DNA from: an uncultured Candidatus Saccharibacteria bacterium
GTDB lineage: Bacteria > Patescibacteriota > Minisyncoccia > Phycocordibacterales > UBA9973
Length of the DNA stretch: 64,000 bases
Direction: 5' to 3'
Assembly: GCA_964348725.1 (NCBI GenBank)
Contig: CAYGDG010000003.1
Coordinates: forward strand, 30,775 to 94,774
Part shown: piece after piece, positions 18,064-63,464 of the stretch
Numbering within the stretch: position 1 is the first letter of the stretch
Layout of the letters: every line of letters begins with the position of its first letter
The notes under the pieces: model-generated
Told to the model about the DNA's origin: nothing
Database searches by the model: none
Seen by the model: the letters and a program-made list of their open reading frames with translations, nothing else
Position numbers and translations under genes: made by a program

Positions 18064-18883
18064 CAGTTTTTGTTATTTGTATCCAATCTGTAAGCGTGAG
18101 TTCTTCCGCACGGGTATTTATGGGTATATCAGTGGGTAATTTCGCTATATTTTTCAGGTTTCCAGCCAGTATCTTGCGCTTATGTGCAAAGCCGGCGCGG
18201 ACAATAGTCCAAAATTTTTCTTCATCTACTGCTTTTTGCCCAAAAAGCTTGCGGTTTAGGTCTGTAATAGCTATAACCGCCGAATCCACCTTCGGCGCCG
18301 GGGAAAAATACCGCGCCGGCACTTTCATCACCATCTTCGGATTACCATATGCTTTGACCGATATGGAAAGGATGCTTTCTTTACCATCGTTCGCGATAAT
18401 TCTCTGCGCCACTTCCCTCTGTACGAGCAATACCATGCGCTCTGGCTGATTTTTTTCCGTCAAAAACTTTTTCAATATCGCGCCTGTGATGTTGTACGGT
18501 ATGTTTGCTATTACTTTATACCTCACCCCCTGCCCCCTCTCCTTATCAAGGAGAGGGGAAATTTCAAACTCCAAAATATCTTCATTTTTTAAAATTAATT
18601 TTTTATTTTGTATTTCATTCGCAAATTTTTCCTGCAAGTATTCAAAAAGCTCTGAATCTTTTTCCACGGCGATGACTGTCGCCCCTGCGCCAAGCAATTT
18701 TTCCGTCAGCGCACCCTTACCGGGGCCGATTTCAAGCACAATGTCTTTTGCATTCACTTCACCCGCCGAAATAATCGCGGTCAGCGCCGCTTGCGATTTC
18801 AAGAAATTCTGCCCGAGTGATTTTTTTGCTCTGTGTCCAGGCCCGGCCTGGACAGTAGATTTGGTTTTATATTTTTTCATCAT
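18056..18883 (-). CDS. rsmA: 16S rRNA (adenine1518/1519-N6)-dimethyltransferase RsmA/KsgA, carrying two in-frame palindromic repeat insertions
   Basis: GHRAKKSLGQNFL, VLEIGPGKGALT (SAM site), ANIPYNIT motifs; REP-A at 18834..18854 and hairpin repeat at 18520..18558 lie inside the ORF. Confidence 0.85.
   Translation of the reverse strand: MMKKYKTKSTVQAGPGHRAKKSLGQNFLKSQAALTAIISAGEVNAKDIVLEIGPGKGALTEKLLGAGATVIAVEKDSELFEYLQEKFANEIQNKKLILKNEDILEFEISPLLDKERGQGVRYKVIANIPYNITGAILKKFLTEKNQPERMVLLVQREVAQRIIANDGKESILSISVKAYGNPKMVMKVPARYFSPAPKVDSAVIAITDLNRKLFGQKAVDEEKFWTIVRAGFAHKRKILAGNLKNIAKLPTDIPINTRAEELTLTDWIQITKTVN
18520..18558 (-). repeat. 37-39 bp hairpin repeat family C (RPE-like), copy 1, in-frame inside rsmA
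   Basis: rc = CCCCTCTCCTTGATAAGGAGAGGGGGCAGGGGGTGAGGT; encodes SPLLDKERGQGVRY within KsgA. Confidence 0.7.
18834..18854. repeat. REP-A palindrome copy 1 (TGTCCAGGCCCGGCCTGGACA)
   Basis: Perfect 19-21 bp palindrome; 13 bp downstream of RAYT1 stop, inside rsmA N-terminal codons. Confidence 0.8.
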
Positions 18884-19526
18884 ACGTAAGCCAATTTTCT
18901 ATTTCTGCTTTTACTTCATCCGTATTTTGAAAATAATCCGGAAATGGGCTCTTTTCCAGGATCTTTTTCTCCGAGCGTTCCAGATTCAAATAATCCACAT
19001 AGCTTGAAAAATTAAATTTTTTCAAGTATTCTTTCGCGCCGGAAATATTTTTTAAGCCGGCTTCCTTCCATCGCGGCTCTATTATTTTGAGTGGATTGAG
19101 ATGAATATAAGCGTATAAGTATTTTAAATAATTGTCGTTTTCGACATGCTGCGATTTTGTTTTTCCCTGAAAAAGAGATCCGCTCCGGTCATATTTTTTG
19201 TTGAAATATGTGGAATAACTTGTGAGTAATTTTAAAAGAAACTGGCTTGCATCTTTCTCATTTTTGATCCGTACAAGAATATGAAAATGATTCGGCATTA
19301 GGCAATACGCCCCGATATCTACCAAACTCTCCCCTCTTTCCACTGTCCAGGCCCGGCCTGGACTTGTCTCAGCGTCAGAATATTTCGGCGATTCTTTGCC
19401 GTTGCATAAATAAAGTAGCTTATGAAATCGCGCATAATCTTTTTCATCCTTGAAAATCGTCATTTTATTTGTCCCACGATTATACAGATGATAATACTCC
19501 CCTTGGGCAAAAGGTATTTTCCTCAT
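18867..19526 (-). CDS. REP-associated tyrosine transposase / IS200-like Y1 HUH transposase (RAYT1)
   Basis: 219 aa; GEYYHLYNRG, HUH motif CLMPNHFHILV, catalytic Tyr region LLTSYSTYFNKKYDRSGSLFQG; flanked by REP-A. Confidence 0.75.
   Translation of the reverse strand: MRKIPFAQGEYYHLYNRGTNKMTIFKDEKDYARFHKLLYLCNGKESPKYSDAETSPGRAWTVERGESLVDIGAYCLMPNHFHILVRIKNEKDASQFLLKLLTSYSTYFNKKYDRSGSLFQGKTKSQHVENDNYLKYLYAYIHLNPLKIIEPRWKEAGLKNISGAKEYLKKFNFSSYVDYLNLERSEKKILEKSPFPDYFQNTDEVKAEIENWLTYDEKI
19345..19363. repeat. REP-A palindrome copy 2, in-frame inside RAYT1
   Basis: GTCCAGGCCCGGCCTGGAC; encodes SPGRAWT within the transposase. Confidence 0.8.
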
Positions 19527-19539
19527 CCTCCTATTATAC

Positions 19540-19560
19540 TGTCCAGGCCCGGCCTGGACA
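19540..19560. repeat. REP-A palindrome copy 3
   Basis: TGTCCAGGCCCGGCCTGGACA, 14 bp upstream of RAYT1 start. Confidence 0.8.
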
Positions 19561-20784: not shown

Positions 20785-20803
20785 GTCCAGGCCCGGCCTG
20801 GAC
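20785..20803. repeat. REP-A palindrome copy 4
   Basis: GTCCAGGCCCGGCCTGGAC immediately after CCCGCC...GGCGGG hairpin; overlaps pcrA stop codon by 1 nt. Confidence 0.8.
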
Positions 20804-22812
20804 TAGATGTAAATGGTTTTTATGCCGCTGTCTTCCCCTTCTTTCTCCAAAATATCCGCTGGAATATCCTGTAAGAATTCACTCGGCGCATTTATCTGGC
20901 GGGAGCCGAAGATGGTGCGGAAGTTCGCGAATGACAAATGCAGTTTTTTCTTGGCGCGGGTGAGGGCCACATAAAACAGGCGGCGTTCTTCCTCGGCATC
21001 TTCGGCGCTTTTTCTGTCGCCGTCTCTTCTGTGCGGGAACAATCCGTCTTCTAATCCGGTGATGAATACGGTGCCGAATTCCAAGCCCTTTGAAGCGTGC
21101 ACGGTCATCAGGCGCACGGCGTTTTTGTTTTCTTTCTTGGTTTCCGTAATCATCATGGAGTCCTGATCGCTGGCGAGTGATGCATCCTCTAAAAGTTTTT
21201 CCACGCCCGCCCCGGCGGGTAAACCGGCACTGCCTTCCAGGTTGTCATATTTTAAGGCGAGCGTGGCGAGCTCTTTGATGTTCTCCAATCGCTCCACATC
21301 TTCATCCGTGCCGTTTTTCAATTCTTCTTCAATGCCCGAGCGCTTCACGGTGAAACGAATTACTTCGCTTGTTTTTGCCGTCTGGATTTTTTCTTGTATT
21401 TCTTCAAGTGTTTTGTAGAAATTTTGAATTTTGAGTTGCATCTTTATCGGCAGTTCTGCTTTTTGTCCGCTGAAAAGTTTTGCCATCGTCGTCTTGCCGA
21501 TACCACGTGCCGGAAAATTGATGATGCGCTTGATATCCGACAGGCTTTCCGGATTCAAAGCCGCGCGGAGGTATGCCAGGGTATCCTTGATTTCCTTGCG
21601 CTCAAAGAATTTTACGCCGAGCACTTGGTATGGGATGTTGTAGCGGAGGAGTGCTTCTTCCAATGCGCGGGATTGGTAGTTTGCTCTATATAGTACCGCG
21701 ATGTCGGCGAAAGAGTTTTTCTCAGTCGCTCGGTTCTCCTCGCTGTCGCTCGGCCACTCCTTCAAAAAATCTCTTTCACCGACATCGCAGATTTCCAAAA
21801 TTTTCGTCGCCACGAATTCCGCTTCCTCGCCTTCGCTCAACGCTTCATATAATCCGATCTTCTCCCCCGCCGCATTCTTAGTAAAAAGATTCTTGTCCGG
21901 GCGGAATTTATTTTTCTTGATCACATTGTTCGCCGCTTCCAAAATATTCTGCGTGGAGCGGTAATTTTCCTCAAGCAACACTATCTTTGCATTCGGGTAA
22001 TCTTTTTCAAATGATAAAATATTTTTCAAATTTGCCCCGCGCCAGGAATAAATATTCTGGTCAGCATCACCCACTGCTGTAATATTTTTATGCTTCTCCG
22101 ATAGCAGGCGTGTCAGCATATATTGCACCTCATTCGTGTCCTGATACTCGTCTATATGAATGTACTGCCAGCGGTCTTGGTATATCTGGCGTATTCCCTC
22201 ATTCTCTTTTAAAAGCCGCGTCGCTTTCAAGAGCAAGTCATCAAAATCCAGCGAATTTTCTTTCGCTTTTTTCTTTTCGTATGACTGCCATACCTGTGCC
22301 ACGATTTTGGAAAGATAGTCGCTCGCATTTTCAGCATAGACAGCCATATCCGTGAATTTTCCTTTCTCGCGGCTGATGATATTCCGTATCTTTTTCGGTT
22401 CGTATTGCTTTGGGTCCAAGCCGATTTCTTTTAAAGATTCTTTTACCATGGACGCGGTATCTCCCTCATCCAATATCGTAAAATATTTTGTCAGTCCCAA
22501 AGCGCGCGCATTTTCTTTAATAATAAAAACTCCGAGCGAGTGAAAAGTGGAGACGAACGGCACGGTACTCTGCCCCTTGGCATTTTTTTCAATTTCAGCG
22601 ATGACGCGCTCACGCATTTCTTTGGCCGCTTTGTTTGTGAAAGTGACGGCCAAAATATTCTCCGGCGCGATGCCCTGCTTGATGAGGTTCACGATTCTGT
22701 GAGTTATTGTTTTCGTCTTCCCCGCGCCCGCACCAGCCACGATAAGAAGCGGCCCGTCTTTATGCTGGGCCGCTTCTTTTTGTGCGTCATTTAAGCCGTG
22801 GAGGTGTTCCAT
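20803..22812 (-). CDS. pcrA: ATP-dependent DNA helicase PcrA/UvrD family
   Basis: 669 aa; Walker A AGAGAGKTKT, motifs TFTNKAAKEM, DEYQDTN, VGDADQNIYSWRGA, VHASKGLEF. Confidence 0.85.
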   Translation of the reverse strand: MEHLHGLNDAQKEAAQHKDGPLLIVAGAGAGKTKTITHRIVNLIKQGIAPENILAVTFTNKAAKEMRERVIAEIEKNAKGQSTVPFVSTFHSLGVFIIKENARALGLTKYFTILDEGDTASMVKESLKEIGLDPKQYEPKKIRNIISREKGKFTDMAVYAENASDYLSKIVAQVWQSYEKKKAKENSLDFDDLLLKATRLLKENEGIRQIYQDRWQYIHIDEYQDTNEVQYMLTRLLSEKHKNITAVGDADQNIYSWRGANLKNILSFEKDYPNAKIVLLEENYRSTQNILEAANNVIKKNKFRPDKNLFTKNAAGEKIGLYEALSEGEEAEFVATKILEICDVGERDFLKEWPSDSEENRATEKNSFADIAVLYRANYQSRALEEALLRYNIPYQVLGVKFFERKEIKDTLAYLRAALNPESLSDIKRIINFPARGIGKTTMAKLFSGQKAELPIKMQLKIQNFYKTLEEIQEKIQTAKTSEVIRFTVKRSGIEEELKNGTDEDVERLENIKELATLALKYDNLEGSAGLPAGAGVEKLLEDASLASDQDSMMITETKKENKNAVRLMTVHASKGLEFGTVFITGLEDGLFPHRRDGDRKSAEDAEEERRLFYVALTRAKKKLHLSFANFRTIFGSRQINAPSEFLQDIPADILEKEGEDSGIKTIYI

Positions 22813-32951: not shown

Positions 32952-32965
32952 AGATTAAAAAAGTG

Positions 32966-33038
32966 TGCGGCGTAGGAGAATCGAACTCCTGTCTCATCCT
33001 TGGCAAGGACGTGTTCTACCACTAAACCAACACCGCGC
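32966..33038 (-). tRNA. tRNA-Gly(GCC)-like, with two central acceptor-stem mismatches
   Basis: Anticodon arm CGTCC-TTGCCAA-GGATG, T-arm GGAGT-TCGATTC-CTCC; acceptor GCGCGGT vs ACGCCGC gives C:C and G:G at pairs 4:69 and 5:68. Confidence 0.55.
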
Positions 33039-33105
33039 AAAAACAGTATAATATTTTATACCTAGAAATGCAATATATCTATAAATAATGTACTATATTA
33101 AGGAC

Positions 33106-33180
33106 GCACTCGTAGTGAAATGGATATCACGACTGCCTTCGAAGCAGTTATTGGGGGTTCGAATCCCTCCGAGTGCACCA
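33106..33180 (+). tRNA. tRNA-Arg(TCG), CCA encoded
   Basis: Acceptor GCACTCG/CGAGTGC perfect; anticodon stem ACTGC/GCAGT, loop CTTCGAA; T-loop TTCGAAT; 75 nt. Confidence 0.75.
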
Positions 33181-33274
33181 GCGTCAAAAAGCTATTTTAG
33201 TCAATAGTGTCCAATAATATCTCTTTATTTAATCTTTATCACCTATAGGTATAATAGGTAAAAGGGTTGAAAAC

Positions 33275-33283
33275 TGTGGATAA
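33275..33283 (-). promoter_or_regulatory. Perfect DnaA box (TGTGGATAA) in AT-rich tRNA-flanking intergenic region
   Basis: rc = TTATCCACA. Confidence 0.4.
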
Positions 33284-33400
33284 CTATGTTGGAAAGGTGT
33301 ATAACGGACACTTTTCCTGTCTCATATTAGACCCTTATTTTTATAAAATAGCCTTATAAATAAAGCTATAATGTAAAAGACAGCAAAAATAACTGTATTT

Positions 33401-33414
33401 GTTTCACGTGAAAC
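33401..33414. promoter_or_regulatory. Perfect 14-bp palindrome GTTTCACGTGAAAC overlapping start region of yraN-like gene
   Basis: Self-complementary; GTTTCACGTG recurs at 33601..33610 and CATGTGAAAC at ~43031 upstream of pnp. Confidence 0.35.
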
Positions 33415-33419
33415 ATATT

Positions 33420-33833
33420 ATGCCAAAGGTTTTTACTTCAAATACACAAAAAATAGGTGAAATAGGCGAGAATATAGCCTGTGAGTTCCTCATGAAACAT
33501 GGTTTTTCGGTAATTGAACGCAATTATACGAAAAAATGGGGTGAAATTGATATAATTGCCGAAAAAAGCAACAAAATATACTTTATAGAAGTTAAATCTG
33601 TTTCACGTGCAACTTTGCCGGATGTTTCGCATGAAACAAAGGGGAATGACGAATATCGTCCAGAAGACAACATGCACCCTTGGAAATTAAAGCGGCTTTC
33701 ACGGACAATACAAACCTATATTCTGTCCAAGAAGCTGGATGAAAGGGAATGGCAGGTAGACCTATTGGTGGTGTATATGGACATACGGAACCGCACGGCC
33801 AGGGTAAAGGTCATGTCAGATATTATTCTATAG
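33420..33833 (+). CDS. yraN: YraN/UPF0102 family endonuclease-like protein
   Basis: GEIGENIACEFLMKHGFSVIERNY..GEIDIIAEK...IYFIEVK PD-(D/E)xK-like pattern; ATG 33420 preferred over TTG 33399. Confidence 0.6.
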   Translation: MPKVFTSNTQKIGEIGENIACEFLMKHGFSVIERNYTKKWGEIDIIAEKSNKIYFIEVKSVSRATLPDVSHETKGNDEYRPEDNMHPWKLKRLSRTIQTYILSKKLDEREWQVDLLVVYMDIRNRTARVKVMSDIIL

Positions 33834-33843
33834 AATGAAAATG

Positions 33844-33914
33844 TCGGGGCGCTGGGAATCGAACCCAGTCTATCTGTTCCCAAAACAGACGTACTACCGG
33901 TATACTACGCCCCG
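33844..33914 (-). tRNA. tRNA-Pro(TGG)
   Basis: Acceptor CGGGGCG/CGCCCCG; anticodon stem TCTGT/ACAGA loop TTTGGGA; T-loop TTCGATT; 71 nt. Confidence 0.75.
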
Positions 33915-33943
33915 ATGCTTTTTTGTGCCGGGATATGAACGGC

Positions 33944-34017
33944 TGGTGCGGGATAAGGGAGTCGAACCCTTCACCACAGTTTGGAAAACTGTTATTTTAC
34001 CGATAAACTAATCCCGC
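33944..34017 (-). tRNA. tRNA-Gly(TCC), CCA encoded
   Basis: Acceptor GCGGGAT/ATCCCGC; anticodon stem ACAGT/ACTGT loop TTTCCAA; T-arm AAGGG-TTCGACT-CCCTT. Confidence 0.75.
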
Positions 34018-37101: not shown

Positions 37102-37857
37102 GCTAAAAATTTTAAAATGAGGTTTTATAAGCCTATTTTTGTGTGTCGTAAGAGTCTTTTTTCCAGCTTATAAAATAAGGATGGAATTTGGACGACCCAA
37201 AATTGTCTTGAAAACAAAAGGTCTTACGACGGTTACGAACGGACGGGATTGTCTGATAGGCTCTTTCGTGCTCCTGTACGGTATGTCTAAAGGGTACCCG
37301 ATAGGCTTCCCGAAGTCAACCCTTTTGGGGATAACTTTTTTTGACAAAAATTCGGAATAAATGTTAAATTATAAAGGTATTTAGCTCTTCAAACATACAA
37401 AACCCTAGCATTTATGGAAAAGTTATATATTCTACTTCGTGCACCCGTATCGGGGAATTGGTTTTTCTTCCTTGTGGCTATGACCGGGGCAGCTTTGTGG
37501 TTTGCTTTGGCTTGGCTATTAATAGAGGAAAATCCTAGAAATAAAAAAAGACCGCCCTAAACGCGGCTTTTTGTTTTTTTGGATAAAAAAACTCCCCCCG
37601 AACCACCAGGGAGAGTTAACCATTAAACAAAACCGACAATTATTTATAGGCTATCGCCTGCGCCGACCTTGATTGGCCGTGAGATTTCTTCCACTACGTC
37701 GTGTACGACGTGAGTACACATAAAATTTTTCTTCATCGGCAATACCTTTTGGCCTGCCAGGTCTAGGGGCTATTTTTTTTCGAATCATAAAGAATAGGTT
37801 TAAAGTTCATTGTAATAATATTCCTGTCTGGGCTGCAAAGCAAGAGGGGATAACTAG

Positions 37858-37939
37858 TGCCGTGGGAGGGATTTGAACCCTCAAGCCCGAAAGCATACGC
37901 TTCTGAAGCGTACGTGTATACCAATTCCACCACCACGGC
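37858..37939 (-). tRNA. tRNA-Leu(CAG)
   Basis: Acceptor GCCGTGG/CCACGGC; anticodon stem TACGC/GCGTA loop TTCAGAA; long variable arm; T-loop TTCAAAT. Confidence 0.7.
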
Positions 37940-41177: not shown

Positions 41178-41214
41178 CCCCCTCTGCTTAATAAGGAGAG
41201 GGTCGGGGTGAGGT
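41178..41214 (+). repeat. Hairpin repeat family C copy 2 (intergenic, after rpsO)
   Basis: CCCCCTCTGCTTAATAAGGAGAGGGTCGGGGTGAGGT. Confidence 0.7.
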
Positions 41215-45853: not shown

Positions 45854-46630
45854 ATGTCGACACTTTCGCAGATAAATGAGCTTTTAAGAAAATCATCTCT
45901 TTTAAATGAAAAAGAGATTTTAGTATACGAGGCATATATCGGGCAAAAATTTTTGAGTCCGACACAGATTTCCCGCATAACAGGGATAAAACGCACGACT
46001 GTCTACCTTGTATTGGAAGAATTAAAACAAAAAGGTTTATTGATTGAAAAAATAAAAGGCAAAAGAAAAGTGGCCGGCCTTGCTCCGGCTCAAACACTGA
46101 GGCATTTAGTGAATCATGAAGAGGAGAAAGTAAAAGAAAAAAGTAATATGGTGCGCAATATAATTCTTCTTTTGGAAAATTTGCAAAAAAATGCTAACGA
46201 AGAAACTGAAATAGAAATCTTGGAAGGCAAAAATGGAGCTATTGTACTTTTAGAAAAAATTCTAGAACAAAAAGAAAATATTTATTGGCTTGGCTCTTTA
46301 GACACTATTTTGCAAATATTTGAAGAAGAAAAACTGTATAAATTGTTTACTTGGAAGCGAATGGATACAAAAACAGTTTCATATGCCATTACTGATAGGA
46401 AAATATTGAATAATAAAAAATTTGGAGAAAAAATAGAAGGATTTAGGCAATTTCGTTTTTTGCCTGAAAATTTTGATATACCGGCTCTTATTATTTTGTT
46501 TGGAAATTCAGTCGGGTTGATTCGGATTCATAAAAAAGATTTGAAAATAGTATTTGTTCGGGATAAAAATATTTCAGGAATAGTCAAATTTATGCTCGAT
46601 ATTTTATGGAAGTCGCTTCCGGAACACTAA
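45854..46630 (+). CDS. TrmB-like HTH transcriptional regulator
   Basis: N-terminal winged-helix EILVYEAYIGQKFLSPTQISRITGIKRTTVYLVLEELKQKGLL. Confidence 0.55.
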   Translation: MSTLSQINELLRKSSLLNEKEILVYEAYIGQKFLSPTQISRITGIKRTTVYLVLEELKQKGLLIEKIKGKRKVAGLAPAQTLRHLVNHEEEKVKEKSNMVRNIILLLENLQKNANEETEIEILEGKNGAIVLLEKILEQKENIYWLGSLDTILQIFEEEKLYKLFTWKRMDTKTVSYAITDRKILNNKKFGEKIEGFRQFRFLPENFDIPALIILFGNSVGLIRIHKKDLKIVFVRDKNISGIVKFMLDILWKSLPEH

Positions 46631-46710
46631 AATAAAATTGACGCTAAAATTAATAATTTTTTGGTGTACTTATGATACAATAAACGGAACGAGGCATATT
46701 ATGTCCATTA

Positions 46711-46731
46711 GTTAGCGCTTTAGACCCTAAC
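46711..46731 (+). repeat. REP-B copy 1 (GTTAGCGCTTTAGACCCTAAC)
   Basis: 11 bp upstream of RAYT2 start; exact reverse complement at 47401..47421. Confidence 0.75.
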
Positions 46732-46742
46732 TTATATATATT

Positions 46743-47405
46743 ATGCGCAAAGAACCTTTAATAACAGGAGAGTATTATCACATTTATAATAGAGGCGTTG
46801 ATAAAAGAGATATTTTCAACGATCTCCACGACTCGGAGCGTTTCAAGGAAAGCATCAAAGAATTCAATCAAGTAGATATAGTGGGCAGCCTGCAACGACA
46901 GCATAAAGTAGTTAGGGCTTTAGACCCTAACTATTGCAAAAAACCGCTCGTCGCCATCGTTTGTTTTTGTGTTAATCCTAACCATTTCCATTTTGTTCTA
47001 AAACAGTTGGTTGATGGCGGAATAGCAAAATTCATGCAGAAACTTCTTGGCGGGTATACTTCTTTTTTTAATCAGAAACATCAGCGGTCAGGGTCTTTAT
47101 TTCAAGGAACATTTAAATCAAAATTATTGAGCGATGAAGGTTATTTCAGAAAGATTTTCGCTTATGTTAATCAGAATTATTTAGTGCACTCCATACCGGC
47201 AGAGAAATTGAAATTTATTTTTGCCAGCGATGCGGAATACAGCAAAGGGAATTTTGATTTTATTGACGCTCAAGAGGGGAAAGAGATGCTTGAAGTTTTT
47301 GATGGGGAAGCCGGTTTTAAAAATCATTGCAAAGAAATCATAAGTCTCATCAGGGAAGAGCGAGGCGCGCCTTCCTTGAATGAACCGGATGAACTGCCTT
47401 GTTAG
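46743..47405 (+). CDS. REP-associated tyrosine transposase / IS200-like Y1 HUH transposase (RAYT2)
   Basis: 220 aa; GEYYHIYNRG, HUH CVNPNHFHFVL, LLGGYTSFFNQKHQRSGSLFQG; paralog of 18867..19526. Confidence 0.75.
   Translation: MRKEPLITGEYYHIYNRGVDKRDIFNDLHDSERFKESIKEFNQVDIVGSLQRQHKVVRALDPNYCKKPLVAIVCFCVNPNHFHFVLKQLVDGGIAKFMQKLLGGYTSFFNQKHQRSGSLFQGTFKSKLLSDEGYFRKIFAYVNQNYLVHSIPAEKLKFIFASDAEYSKGNFDFIDAQEGKEMLEVFDGEAGFKNHCKEIISLIREERGAPSLNEPDELPC
46911..46931 (+). repeat. REP-B copy 2, in-frame inside RAYT2 (GTTAGGGCTTTAGACCCTAAC)
   Basis: 7-bp arms GTTAGGG/CCCTAAC; encodes VVRALDPNY. Confidence 0.75.
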
Positions 47406-47421
47406 GGTCTAAAGCGCTAAC
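47401..47421 (-). repeat. REP-B copy 3 (inverted), overlaps RAYT2 stop
   Basis: GTTAGGGTCTAAAGCGCTAAC. Confidence 0.75.
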
Positions 47422-47471
47422 CGTAAGGTATTACATTCCACATGCCTGTAAAATAATGCTAGAATATCATC

Positions 47472-48347
47472 ATGCCAGAACCGATACAATCGAATGCCCC
47501 CACTCCTCACGGGGCGGTGAAAACGTATTCCGAGGACATGGCCAAAGCCATAGAAGGCAATGAAGCCGGCCTCATCAAGCAGATAATCAAAGAAGAAGAA
47601 GAGAAAGAACAGGTGAAGAAAAATCTTTCACCCGAAAGCCAGCGGAATAAAACATTCATGCTGATCTCAGTTGTGCTCATTTTCGCCGCATTCATGGCAC
47701 TTGGCGCTATAGTCATAATTGGCAAGCGCATGCACACAGTGGATGTGACGCCGCAATTCGTGCCGCTCATTTTTACCGACAGCATGAAGACGCTGGAAAT
47801 CGCCGGGCTGAATAAAGAAAAAATATTGGAAACGATACATGCCGGAGTTTCCGGAAGCAAAGTAAAGGCAGGCGGCGTGGAAGGAATTTATCTTACTGAA
47901 GGCGGAAAATATATCGGCTTGCGCAGATTCCTGAGTTTACTCAAAGCGAATATAGATCAGGCAAAGCTCACATACGTTTCTGATAATTTTTTCATCGGCG
48001 CCGTAAAGGACGGAGCGAGTGAAAATGCGAACGAGCCGGCAGTCTTGATAAAGACCCGTGCTTTTGAAGACATATTTGAGCCGCTGCAGGCATGGGAAAG
48101 CAAGATGTACCAAGACCTACACATCCTGTTCGGCGATACTATAAATACAGACACAAATTATTTGCTGACCAAGAATTTTGAAGCGGGAGTGATAGAAAAT
48201 AAAGACGCCCGCATCCTATACCGGACGGACGGCACCATCGCTCTGTTTTATCTTTTTGCGGACGATACGTCCGTCATCATCGCCCGTTCCGAAGAAGCGG
48301 CCCGCGAAATCGTCATCCGCCTTGCTTCTTCCAAAGTGAAACGCTAG
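47472..48347 (+). CDS. Hypothetical single-TM protein
   Basis: 291 aa; TM FMLISVVLIFAAFMALGAIVIIG. Confidence 0.45.
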   Translation: MPEPIQSNAPTPHGAVKTYSEDMAKAIEGNEAGLIKQIIKEEEEKEQVKKNLSPESQRNKTFMLISVVLIFAAFMALGAIVIIGKRMHTVDVTPQFVPLIFTDSMKTLEIAGLNKEKILETIHAGVSGSKVKAGGVEGIYLTEGGKYIGLRRFLSLLKANIDQAKLTYVSDNFFIGAVKDGASENANEPAVLIKTRAFEDIFEPLQAWESKMYQDLHILFGDTINTDTNYLLTKNFEAGVIENKDARILYRTDGTIALFYLFADDTSVIIARSEEAAREIVIRLASSKVKR

Positions 48348-48363
48348 GTGATATACTTGTTAT

Positions 48364-48723
48364 ATGACTTTAGACAAGAAACAACTGAAAGAGAAGCTGG
48401 AGGCGGAGCGCGACGTCCTGTTTGAAGAGATGAAAGATATCGGGGTTTTTAATCCGGAGACTAAGACATGGGAAGCTACTCCGGAACCGCAACCTTTTCC
48501 TGAAGCGGATCAAAATGATGCCGCGGACAGATTTGAAGATTTTGAAGAGCGTACCTCACTCCTTCGCGATTTGGAAAAGCGTTTAAAGAGCATCCTGAAT
48601 GCCATTAAAAATTTCGGCAGTTCAGGCTTTGGAAAGTGTAAAGTGTGTAAGAAGGAAATAGAAGCGGCGCGGATGAAAGCAAATCCGGCGGCACGTACGT
48701 GCATGAAGCATTTGAATGATTAA
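48364..48723 (+). CDS. DksA/TraR family C4-type zinc finger protein
   Basis: CKVCKKEIEAARMKANPAARTCMKH. Confidence 0.65.
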   Translation: MTLDKKQLKEKLEAERDVLFEEMKDIGVFNPETKTWEATPEPQPFPEADQNDAADRFEDFEERTSLLRDLEKRLKSILNAIKNFGSSGFGKCKVCKKEIEAARMKANPAARTCMKHLND

Positions 48724-63340: not shown

Positions 63341-63428
63341 GGTGCGTTTGTTCAGGTTAGTGTTGTGTTTTATTGTTTTGTTTTTACAAATTATAGTATA
63401 TTTTTATGATAAAGTCAAAAAACACAAA

Positions 63429-63464
63429 CCCCTCTCCTTTTCAGGAGAGGGGTAGGGGTGAGGT
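63429..63464 (+). repeat. Hairpin repeat family C copy 3 (intergenic)
   Basis: CCCCTCTCCTTTTCAGGAGAGGGGTAGGGGTGAGGT. Confidence 0.7.

Follow-up and report, generated by a model that had tools for sequence, protein, structure and literature searches.

The present analysis concerns RAYT2, a gene for a Y1 HUH enzyme that resembles the transposases associated with repetitive extragenic palindromes (REPs), the so-called RAYTs, and that lies on a 64,000-nucleotide stretch of DNA (the window) from an uncultured Candidatus Saccharibacteria bacterium (GenBank assembly GCA_964348725.1, contig CAYGDG010000003.1). The gene is bracketed by two copies of a short palindrome, REP-B, and carries a third copy in frame within its own coding sequence, and this three-copy layout is conserved across a gene family dominated by Patescibacteria, in which the palindrome itself differs from locus to locus. 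From our point of view, the arrangement probably represents a minimal REPtron- or TIRtron-like unit, namely the gene of a Y1 HUH single-stranded DNA (ssDNA) endonuclease/ligase together with three cognate hairpin copies, and the internal copy is the most interesting part of the finding. The cassette is made up of the following features, with coordinates given for the window.

46711 to 46731, plus strand: 5' copy of REP-B (GTTAGCGCTTTAGACCCTAAC), with 7-bp arms, one C.C mismatch and a 7-nt loop, 11 nt before the ATG.
46732 to 46742, plus strand: AT-rich tract TTATATATATT with -10-like hexamers (TATATA at 46733 to 46738), a putative core promoter for a leaderless mRNA.
46743 to 47405, plus strand: coding sequence of RAYT2, a Y1 HUH enzyme of 220 amino acids (aa).
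46909 to 46933 (core 46911 to 46931), plus strand: internal copy of REP-B (GTTAGGGCTTTAGACCCTAAC), with a stem of 9-10 bp and a loop of 7 nt, in frame.
46983 to 46991, plus strand: HUH motif H81-F82-H83 (NPNHFHF) of RAYT2, invariant columns in the alignments.
47163 to 47165, plus strand: Tyr141 of RAYT2 in the motif YVNQNY, an invariant residue on helix 132-147 and putatively catalytic, as judged from the family.
47401 to 47421, minus strand: 3' copy of REP-B, the exact reverse complement of the 5' copy, covering the last codon and the stop codon.

An earlier sequence-only reading had described exact inverted 21-bp copies on either side of the gene, the right one over the stop codon, as well as a third copy with perfect arms inside the gene, and both descriptions were reproduced in position and sequence. 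The two flanking copies of 21 nt are 100% complementary and separated by 669 nt, and the TAG stop codon of RAYT2 (47403-47405) falls within the left arm of the 3' copy. The consensus that had been quoted for REP-B fits the internal copy, whereas both flanking copies differ from it by a G to C change at position 6, which creates the C.C stem mismatch that the internal copy does not have. The internal arms GTTAGGG and CCCTAAC pair perfectly and can be extended to 9-10 bp (TAGTTAGGG/CCCTAACTA); the copy encodes the peptide VVRALDPN (aa 56-63), and the extended stem reaches K55 and Y64. Folded as ssDNA, the internal copy forms a 10-bp stem of -8.6 kcal/mol (z -3.7), while the flanking copies fold more weakly, one strand better than the other.

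RAYT2 has about 2,550 database relatives, and those that carry a name all belong to the Patescibacteria (Nomura-, Yonath- and Paceibacterota). For the family-wide comparison, we used 80 loci from GTDB species-representative genomes, nearly all of them metagenome-assembled genomes of Patescibacteria, and the layout was counted with a mismatch-tolerant score in 79 usable loci (77 fetched loci and the two genes of the window, RAYT2 and its paralog RAYT1). About half of the fetched loci carry a perfect-stem hairpin at gene nt ~165-190, and in the fetched loci the same palindrome is found again on both sides of the gene, 35-60 nt ahead of the ATG and, at the other end, at the stop codon or overlapping it. 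Pairwise, the upstream and internal palindromes match in 54 of the 79 loci, the internal and downstream ones in 56 and the upstream and downstream ones in 67; one locus-specific palindrome occupies all three positions in 48, as compared to only 1-3 loci that reached the match threshold in shuffled controls. When 46 internal hairpins were aligned by their centres, 94% of the cells were Watson-Crick paired, a percentage that is biased upward by the selection of this set by hairpin score, and all 10 stem pairs had changed on both sides, with 152 compensatory cells versus 47 in shuffles, a covariation signal that this selection does not bias. The stems are equally long at the three positions (10.6, 9.9 and 10.4 bp), and in this comparison the internal copy does not exceed the flanking ones in hairpin strength. 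In some clades, an additional or alternative in-frame copy is located at nt ~440-475, just after the Tyr helix.

These numbers also bear on the trivial explanation that the three copies are chance similarities or an assembly duplication, for which the shortness of the repeats (21 nt) could be put forward. We regard this explanation as refuted, as 100 dinucleotide-preserving shuffles yielded no match to REP-B at up to three mismatches and as dozens of species, each assembled independently, show the layout again; it is present in the 48 loci mentioned above and in 11 cassettes from metagenomes. The internal copy had initially been treated as an incidental detail and is instead a conserved, family-wide feature.

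A few further observations were made around the family loci. Doublets of two inverted hairpins that could form a larger hairpin, as in REPINs, are present at the 3' flank in the stop regions of L054 and L076, and in L052 five hairpin copies are arrayed in front of the gene (-371 to -43). In addition, the density of DnaA-box-like 9-mers (TT[AT]TNCACA) is ~5.5-fold higher in the 150 nt next to the cassette ends, at 0.85/kb as compared to 0.15/kb. They occur in the loci L026-L058, for example in L041 (at -54 and stop+26), L048, L053 and L054, and belong to an extended flanking repeat in several loci; beside the two genes of the window there are none.

The palindromes and the enzymes have diversified together, as the sequence-only reading had proposed. 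Hairpin similarity follows protein identity even if the palindrome-encoded loop is masked (Mantel Spearman r 0.37, p 0.001), reaching 0.8 above 80% protein identity and falling to background below 60%. Furthermore, synteny groups can be defined by the flanking genes (e.g. L008/9/10/12/16/18, L025/28/30/37/38/47 and L001/3/4/5), the members of which have both flanks in common and differ in their palindromes, while the copies inside any one locus match. Shared flanks in combination with differing, internally matched palindromes imply that the genes are long-term residents and that the three copies evolve in concert in situ. The hairpin nearest to REP-B, that of L003, differs by one compensatory G/T...C/A pair and keeps the C.C mismatch. 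From clade to clade, the hairpin centre sits in a different phase of the reading frame, an observation that points to re-copying more than to simple descent. The association of RAYTs with REPs, the presence of one REP family per paralog and the co-evolution of the two are in themselves already established (PMC6006769, PMC8266576).

With regard to the enzyme, RAYT2 passes the Pfam Y1_Tnp model (34.4 bits vs a cut-off of 23), and H81-F-H83 as well as Y141 are invariant among its relatives. A search of the PDB with a RAYT2 sequence profile gave nothing significant, and matches were obtained by fold comparison alone: for an AlphaFold (AF2) model from a 25-sequence input, with a mean predicted local distance difference test (pLDDT) score of 78, the top Foldseek matches in the PDB were IS608 TnpA (2a6m), ISDra2 TnpA (2xm3) and the E. 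coli RAYT 4er8 (probability 0.99-1.0, E 1e-3 to 1e-2). Residues 46-64, which include the palindrome-encoded peptide, form the sole segment with a pLDDT <50, a flexible loop at the protein surface between helix 28-41 (alphaA) and the strand leading to the HUH motif. The C-terminal domain is helical in the model (residues 153-207), and RAYT2 has no Pfam match to a helix-turn-helix (HTH) or DnaA_C domain. The motifs NHFH and FQG are shared by RAYT1 and RAYT2, with YIHLNP as Tyr motif in the former and YVNQNY in the latter.

The same arrangement is found a second time in the window. The paralogy of two such genes, each with a palindrome of its own, had been claimed before and is borne out, since three copies of REP-B are found at RAYT2 and three copies of another palindrome, REP-A, at RAYT1, in the same 5', internal and 3' layout.

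18835 to 18853, minus strand: 3' copy of REP-A, 14 nt past the RAYT1 stop codon and within the N-terminal tail of the ksgA/rsmA open reading frame (ORF).
18867 to 19526, minus strand: RAYT1, 219 aa, 40% identical to RAYT2 (tblastn E 4e-28).
19345 to 19363, minus strand: internal in-frame copy of REP-A, encoding SPGRAWT in the same protein loop as in RAYT2.
19541 to 19559, minus strand: 5' copy of REP-A (GTCCAGGCCGGGCCTGGAC), 15 nt upstream of the ATG and followed by TATAAT, 6 nt and the ATG.
20785 to 20803, no strand: solitary copy of REP-A that abuts the stop codon of a convergent 669-aa ORF (20803-22812, minus strand).

In the ksgA ORF, the start codon of which overlaps the last codons of RAYT1, the 3' hairpin of RAYT1 corresponds to aa 9-17, and the Pfam RrnaAD match begins at aa 17 (window 18835-18883). 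A third palindrome family, CCCCTCTCC-loop-GGAGAGGGG, is represented at 18534-18558 and 63428-63453 and by a weaker copy at 41179-41203. Its copy at 18534 is again in frame within the ksgA/rsmA ORF, where it encodes SPLLDKERG, and the one at 63428 follows an 82-aa gene at a distance of ~28 nt; the 64-kb window contains no RAYT gene cognate to this family, and a similar palindrome, CCTCTCC...GGAGAGG, occurs in the metagenome contigs L099 and L102. The five tRNA genes of the window (Gly-GCC, Arg-TCG, Pro-TGG, Gly-TCC and Leu-CAG, at 32965-34017 and 37857-37939) are unrelated to the cassette.

How far such palindromes spread beyond their cassettes could be assessed in two ways. In the flanks of the 80 loci (±4 kb, 500 kb altogether), ~12 genuine extra copies were found, or ~1 per 40 kb, after 5 of the 17 copies scored had been removed as low-complexity matches in L049. 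From these flanks, the palindromes first appeared to be private to their cassettes, a view that was overturned by the many solitary copies in metagenomes; the low count in the flanks is explained by the density of ~1 per 40 kb. A scan of metagenome contigs for the palindrome of L007 returned 63 stretches with 11 cassettes and 62 solitary copies. All 11 cassettes carry the full triple at ~-40, +173 and +657, every copy with at most one mismatch, and their hairpins are more alike (identity 0.92) than their coding DNA (~0.77) or intergenic DNA (0.4-0.5), although the hairpin value is biased upward as these cassettes were found by exact palindrome match. The solitary copies lie on contigs without a nearby RAYT gene, mostly just after or over the stop codons of ORFs, and about a fifth of them are in frame inside ORFs, including ORFs of 964-976 aa and 182-185 aa. 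Several share a metagenome with a cassette identical to that of L007, which suggests some tens of L007-type copies per genome. Overall, the family behaves as a low-copy REP-like system. As a side observation, solitary copies or doublets in frame apparently occupy the same position of homologous ORFs in different metagenomes, reminiscent of Rickettsia palindromic elements; the host ORFs are those of 964-976 aa in L082, L137 and L142 and those of 182-185 aa in L087, L089, L103, L106, L114 and L135.

Several points weigh against our view of the cassette as a REPtron- or TIRtron-like unit and need to be considered together. First, the identification of RAYT2 as a RAYT stands only in part: it is a class-2 Y1 HUH (RAYT-like) paralog, but it misses the cut-off of 80 bits of the NCBIfam equivalog REP_Tyr_transpos (25.7 bits, and 40.2 bits for RAYT1), and in place of the class-2 motif Y---NP, which RAYT1 displays as YIHLNP, it has YVNQNY. 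Second, the hairpin of RAYT2 is without the GT[AG]G foot tetranucleotide of the REPtron, the feet being (TA)GTTAG in REP-B, (T)GTCCAG in REP-A and CAGATAG or GTGAG in relatives. Third, REP-B had been announced as a repeated family, and we find nothing but the three copies of the cassette, with no further copy in the 64-kb window and the 9.3 kb past its right edge (~73 kb) and none in the metagenome collection of the Joint Genome Institute (JGI); REP-A is likewise missing from those 9.3 kb. At a density of ~1 per 40 kb, however, zero extra copies in ~72 kb are not unlikely. Fourth, that solitary copies and cassettes of the L007 type stem from the same genomes is deduced from shared metagenomes. 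Fifth, about a quarter to a third of the loci have lost the internal copy by decay, and it is thus dispensable. Sixth, close relatives differ in the loop orientation of their flanking copies, (-,+,-), (-,+,+) and (+,+,-), so that orientation-specific models do not fit; the inversion of the flanks that had been emphasized before holds true for RAYT2 and is not a constant of the family. Lastly, strict Watson-Crick palindromy would also be compatible with a double-stranded operator for a dimeric protein.

With regard to transcription, 31 of 82 loci have a -10-like hexamer (TATAAT or TATACT, in many cases preceded by TG) exactly 6 nt before the ATG; in 5 more loci the distance is 7 nt, and five others join after correction of the start codon. 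Such a sharp spacing peak implies leaderless mRNAs. The 5' hairpin lies directly upstream of the hexamer, at the expected -35 position, as exemplified by the order hairpin-AG-TATAAT-6 nt-ATG at RAYT1. RAYT2 has no clean TATAAT at the 6-nt spacing and merely an AT-rich TATATA tract. The 291-aa gene downstream of RAYT2 also has a -10-like TAGAAT with an upstream TG exactly 6 nt before its ATG (window 47460-47474), and leaderless expression may hence be common in the source organism and not RAYT-specific. Readings that invoke a frameshift or an attenuator were discarded, as no slippery site could be seen by eye and as a terminator-like match is on the antisense strand.

One could imagine that the palindromes are double-stranded operators for a dimeric DNA-binding protein, either the C-terminal domain of the RAYT-like protein or another factor. 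This would suit the strict symmetry with its few G.T pairs, the position of the 5' copy next to the -10 box, the helical C-terminal domain (residues 153-207), the DnaA-box-like 9-mers beside the hairpins in one clade and the resemblance of subclass 2.1 tails to HTH domains (PMC6006769). Nevertheless, we consider it improbable: stems of 9-20 bp with loops of 3-7 nt, in which the sequence is free and the pairing is kept, speak for recognition of structure, related HUH Y1 enzymes bind hairpins (2a6o, 4er8), solitary copies at the 3' ends of ORFs or inside them have no obvious role as operators, and Pfam detects no HTH in RAYT2.

For the minimal unit of enzyme gene and cognate hairpins that we favour, the following course of events can be proposed, by analogy with RAYTs, which process cognate REP hairpins in single-stranded form and evolve together with them (PMC8266576). 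The hairpins would be extruded on ssDNA and serve as binding and cleavage substrates of the encoded enzyme. The three copies could be kept homogeneous by an action of the enzyme in cis or by gene conversion over distances of <700 bp, and solitary copies would occasionally be seeded at the 3' ends of genes or in frame, as judged from the ~1 per 30-40 kb in the related system. The internal copy may persist because it resides in a loop that the structural model predicts to be disordered. Bound at the 5' copy, immediately next to the -10 box of the presumed leaderless promoter, the enzyme would probably repress its own transcription, an autoregulation as is found at many transposon ends.

The question arises whether the internal hairpin is indeed a tolerated passenger, as this scheme supposes, or a selected cis-regulatory or "master copy" element. 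In the latter case, binding of the RAYT to the non-template strand, to ssDNA at the fork or to the leaderless mRNA could throttle its own expression, or else the internal copy could guarantee the joint inheritance of enzyme and substrate. In favour of selection, the hairpin resides in the same loop across the family, including both paralogs of the window, compensatory changes keep the internal copy in step with the flanking ones, its hairpin is equal in quality to theirs despite the coding constraint and much longer in some loci (with a 20-bp stem in L040), other clades use the second permissive site at nt ~440-475, and the clade-dependent phase in the reading frame favours repeated re-copying over passive descent. 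On the other hand, the internal copy has decayed in the quarter to third of the loci mentioned above while the loop has kept its length (37 aa without vs 39 aa with a detectable copy); the unchanged length indicates that the missing copies have decayed and were not absent from the outset, and a shorter loop in loci lacking the copy can be ruled out. In addition, solitary copies are in frame in unrelated genes as well, so that no special function needs to be invoked, and an excess of G.T pairs that would indicate a role of the RNA was not seen, with ~9 G.U cells per 460, although the selection of hairpins also penalised such pairs. A tentative idea, which we consider less likely than not, is that the enzyme gene would contain the very DNA structure that its product recognises. 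The in-frame hairpin could then be a brake by which the system senses itself and limits expression or activity, or a protected master copy from which the flanking as well as the dispersed copies are seeded anew. Equally speculative is the notion that a hairpin selected in this way is maintained by concerted evolution across a family that is nearly all-Patescibacterial in the present sample.

The genomic site of the cassette raises yet another possibility, namely an autonomous IS200-like insertion sequence of 711 bp (46711-47421) that would transpose as a whole and have the hairpins as its ends. The RAYT2 cassette is located between a TrmB-family regulator gene and a 291-aa gene (window 45854-48723), the latter being the first gene of a conserved downstream block that continues with a dksA-traR zinc-finger gene and a Mg-chelatase (ComM-like) gene. 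In L144 and L146, the two closest genomes that carry the 291-aa gene, the slot contains other genes: in L144, the TrmB-family gene is followed by a HATPase_c_2/DUF4325 gene of 349 aa, and in L146, which has no TrmB-family gene nearby, the slot holds a YafQ-like toxin-antitoxin pair. The slot is thus a variable spot at which the RAYT2 cassette was gained or lost; at ~55% protein identity, the intergenic DNA is unalignable and the boundaries of a mobile unit are unreadable.

This replacement of genes in the slot, the compact, IS200-like size with exact 21-bp inverted repeats as bounds and the fact that the flanks of RAYT2 match those of 0/80 loci would all be in line with an insertion sequence. 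We nonetheless hold it to be unlikely, since near-identical copies were not found, although no genome-wide count was made, and the paralogs of the window are only 40% identical, paralogs within other genomes carry different palindromes, orthologs reside at syntenic sites across species, and the hairpin disperses alone, without the gene. Moreover, the Tyr motif is not the Y[IV]ENQ of IS200, and the ends are inverted and not on the same strand as in IS200/IS605.

If the minimal unit proposed here is correct, it extends a field in which work on REPs and RAYTs has so far been restricted almost entirely to Proteobacteria and Cyanobacteria and in which the mechanism of REP copying is unsolved. The streamlined genomes of Patescibacteria offer a minimal readable unit of one gene, three matched hairpins and few dispersed copies. 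Orthologs at the same site with different, internally matched hairpins represent a natural experiment on the co-evolution of enzyme and substrate and on the concerted evolution of short repeats, and the conserved intragenic copy provides a direct test of whether such enzymes target their own gene or are controlled by it. Beyond that, palindromic repeats rewrite the termini and loops of proteins (ksgA, large ORFs) in genomes that are thought to be repeat-poor.

In the literature available to us, we found no report that links REPs with Patescibacteria. The present system is similar to the REPtrons of E. coli (YafM), Pseudomonas and Stenotrophomonas (PMC3333891, PMC3479197, PMC8266576) in that a low-copy Y1 HUH gene is bracketed by cognate hairpins, every paralog is paired with a separate hairpin family, the enzyme co-evolves with its hairpin, most solitary hairpins are situated directly behind ORFs, and low copy number, divergent paralogs (40% identical) and synteny groups that span species speak for vertical inheritance. 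Apart from the missing foot tetranucleotide, it differs in the score of RAYT2, which is far below the equivalog cut-off, in the low copy number of the hairpins (REP-B being limited to its cassette), in the conserved in-frame copy inside the gene and in the host, a Patescibacterium with a tiny genome. 

The IS200/IS605 transposases IS608 and ISDra2 TnpA are the best structural matches and share the recognition of hairpins on ssDNA and the compact element of ~700 bp; in contrast to them, we found no multiple identical copies, only divergent paralogs, and the Tyr motif, the inverted ends and the syntenic sites of the gene are different as well. Rickettsia palindromic elements and other intragenic REPs (PMC3733652) are likewise tolerated in frame in loops and tails, as in ksgA and the metagenome ORFs here, whereas the repeats of the present system belong to a cognate HUH gene next to them, which contains a copy as well.

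The closest relatives are perhaps the TIRYT genes or "TIRtrons" (TnpAY1 subclass 2.1, Bertels group 1; PMC3733652, PMC6006769). TIRYT genes, as described by Di Nocera et al., are flanked by terminal inverted repeats (TIRs) that can be self-complementary, extend over the ends of the gene and are little dispersed (PMC3733652), and the present genes resemble them in all these respects, including few or no dispersed copies, and in their length of ~220-240 aa with a C-terminal extension. Measured against the second motif set of Quentin et al. (Table 1 of PMC6006769; NH[YF]H, FQ and Y[IV]HLNP), RAYT1 has 3/3 and RAYT2 2/3 motifs, so that the pair looks more like subclass 2.1/TIRYT than like classical RAYTs, at least at the level of motifs, which were compared without the hidden Markov models of these authors. 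Subclass 2.1 has, however, been reported without REP-like hairpins and without intragenic copies, its TIR motif GGGGWSAS is absent from REP-B and REP-A (G-rich tops similar to it, GGGGTGAA, occur in L070 and L077), and its C-terminal tails are said to resemble the DNA-binding domain of DnaA (PMC6006769), while neither an HTH nor a DnaA_C match is obtained for RAYT2. 

In-frame REPs inside tnpA_REP genes, on the other hand, have been described for subclass 2.4 (Bertels group 4) of Cyanobacteria and Bacteroidetes and were called unique to it (PMC6006769). There, too, the cognate REP lies within the transposase gene in a peripheral variable region and leaves the frame intact, and the hairpins are of the symmetric "double-foot" type. 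In RAYT2, by contrast, the copy is situated before the HUH motif (alphaA-beta2 loop; aa 56-63, upstream of H81), some clades have the second site after the Tyr helix, and the motifs are FQ and YVNQNY/YIHLNP instead of WQ and YIxNNP. The RAYT2 system is thus a variant of the REP/RAYT theme, in which an intragenic copy occurs in a subclass-2.1-like clade, at a different conserved site and in hosts that are nearly all Patescibacteria.

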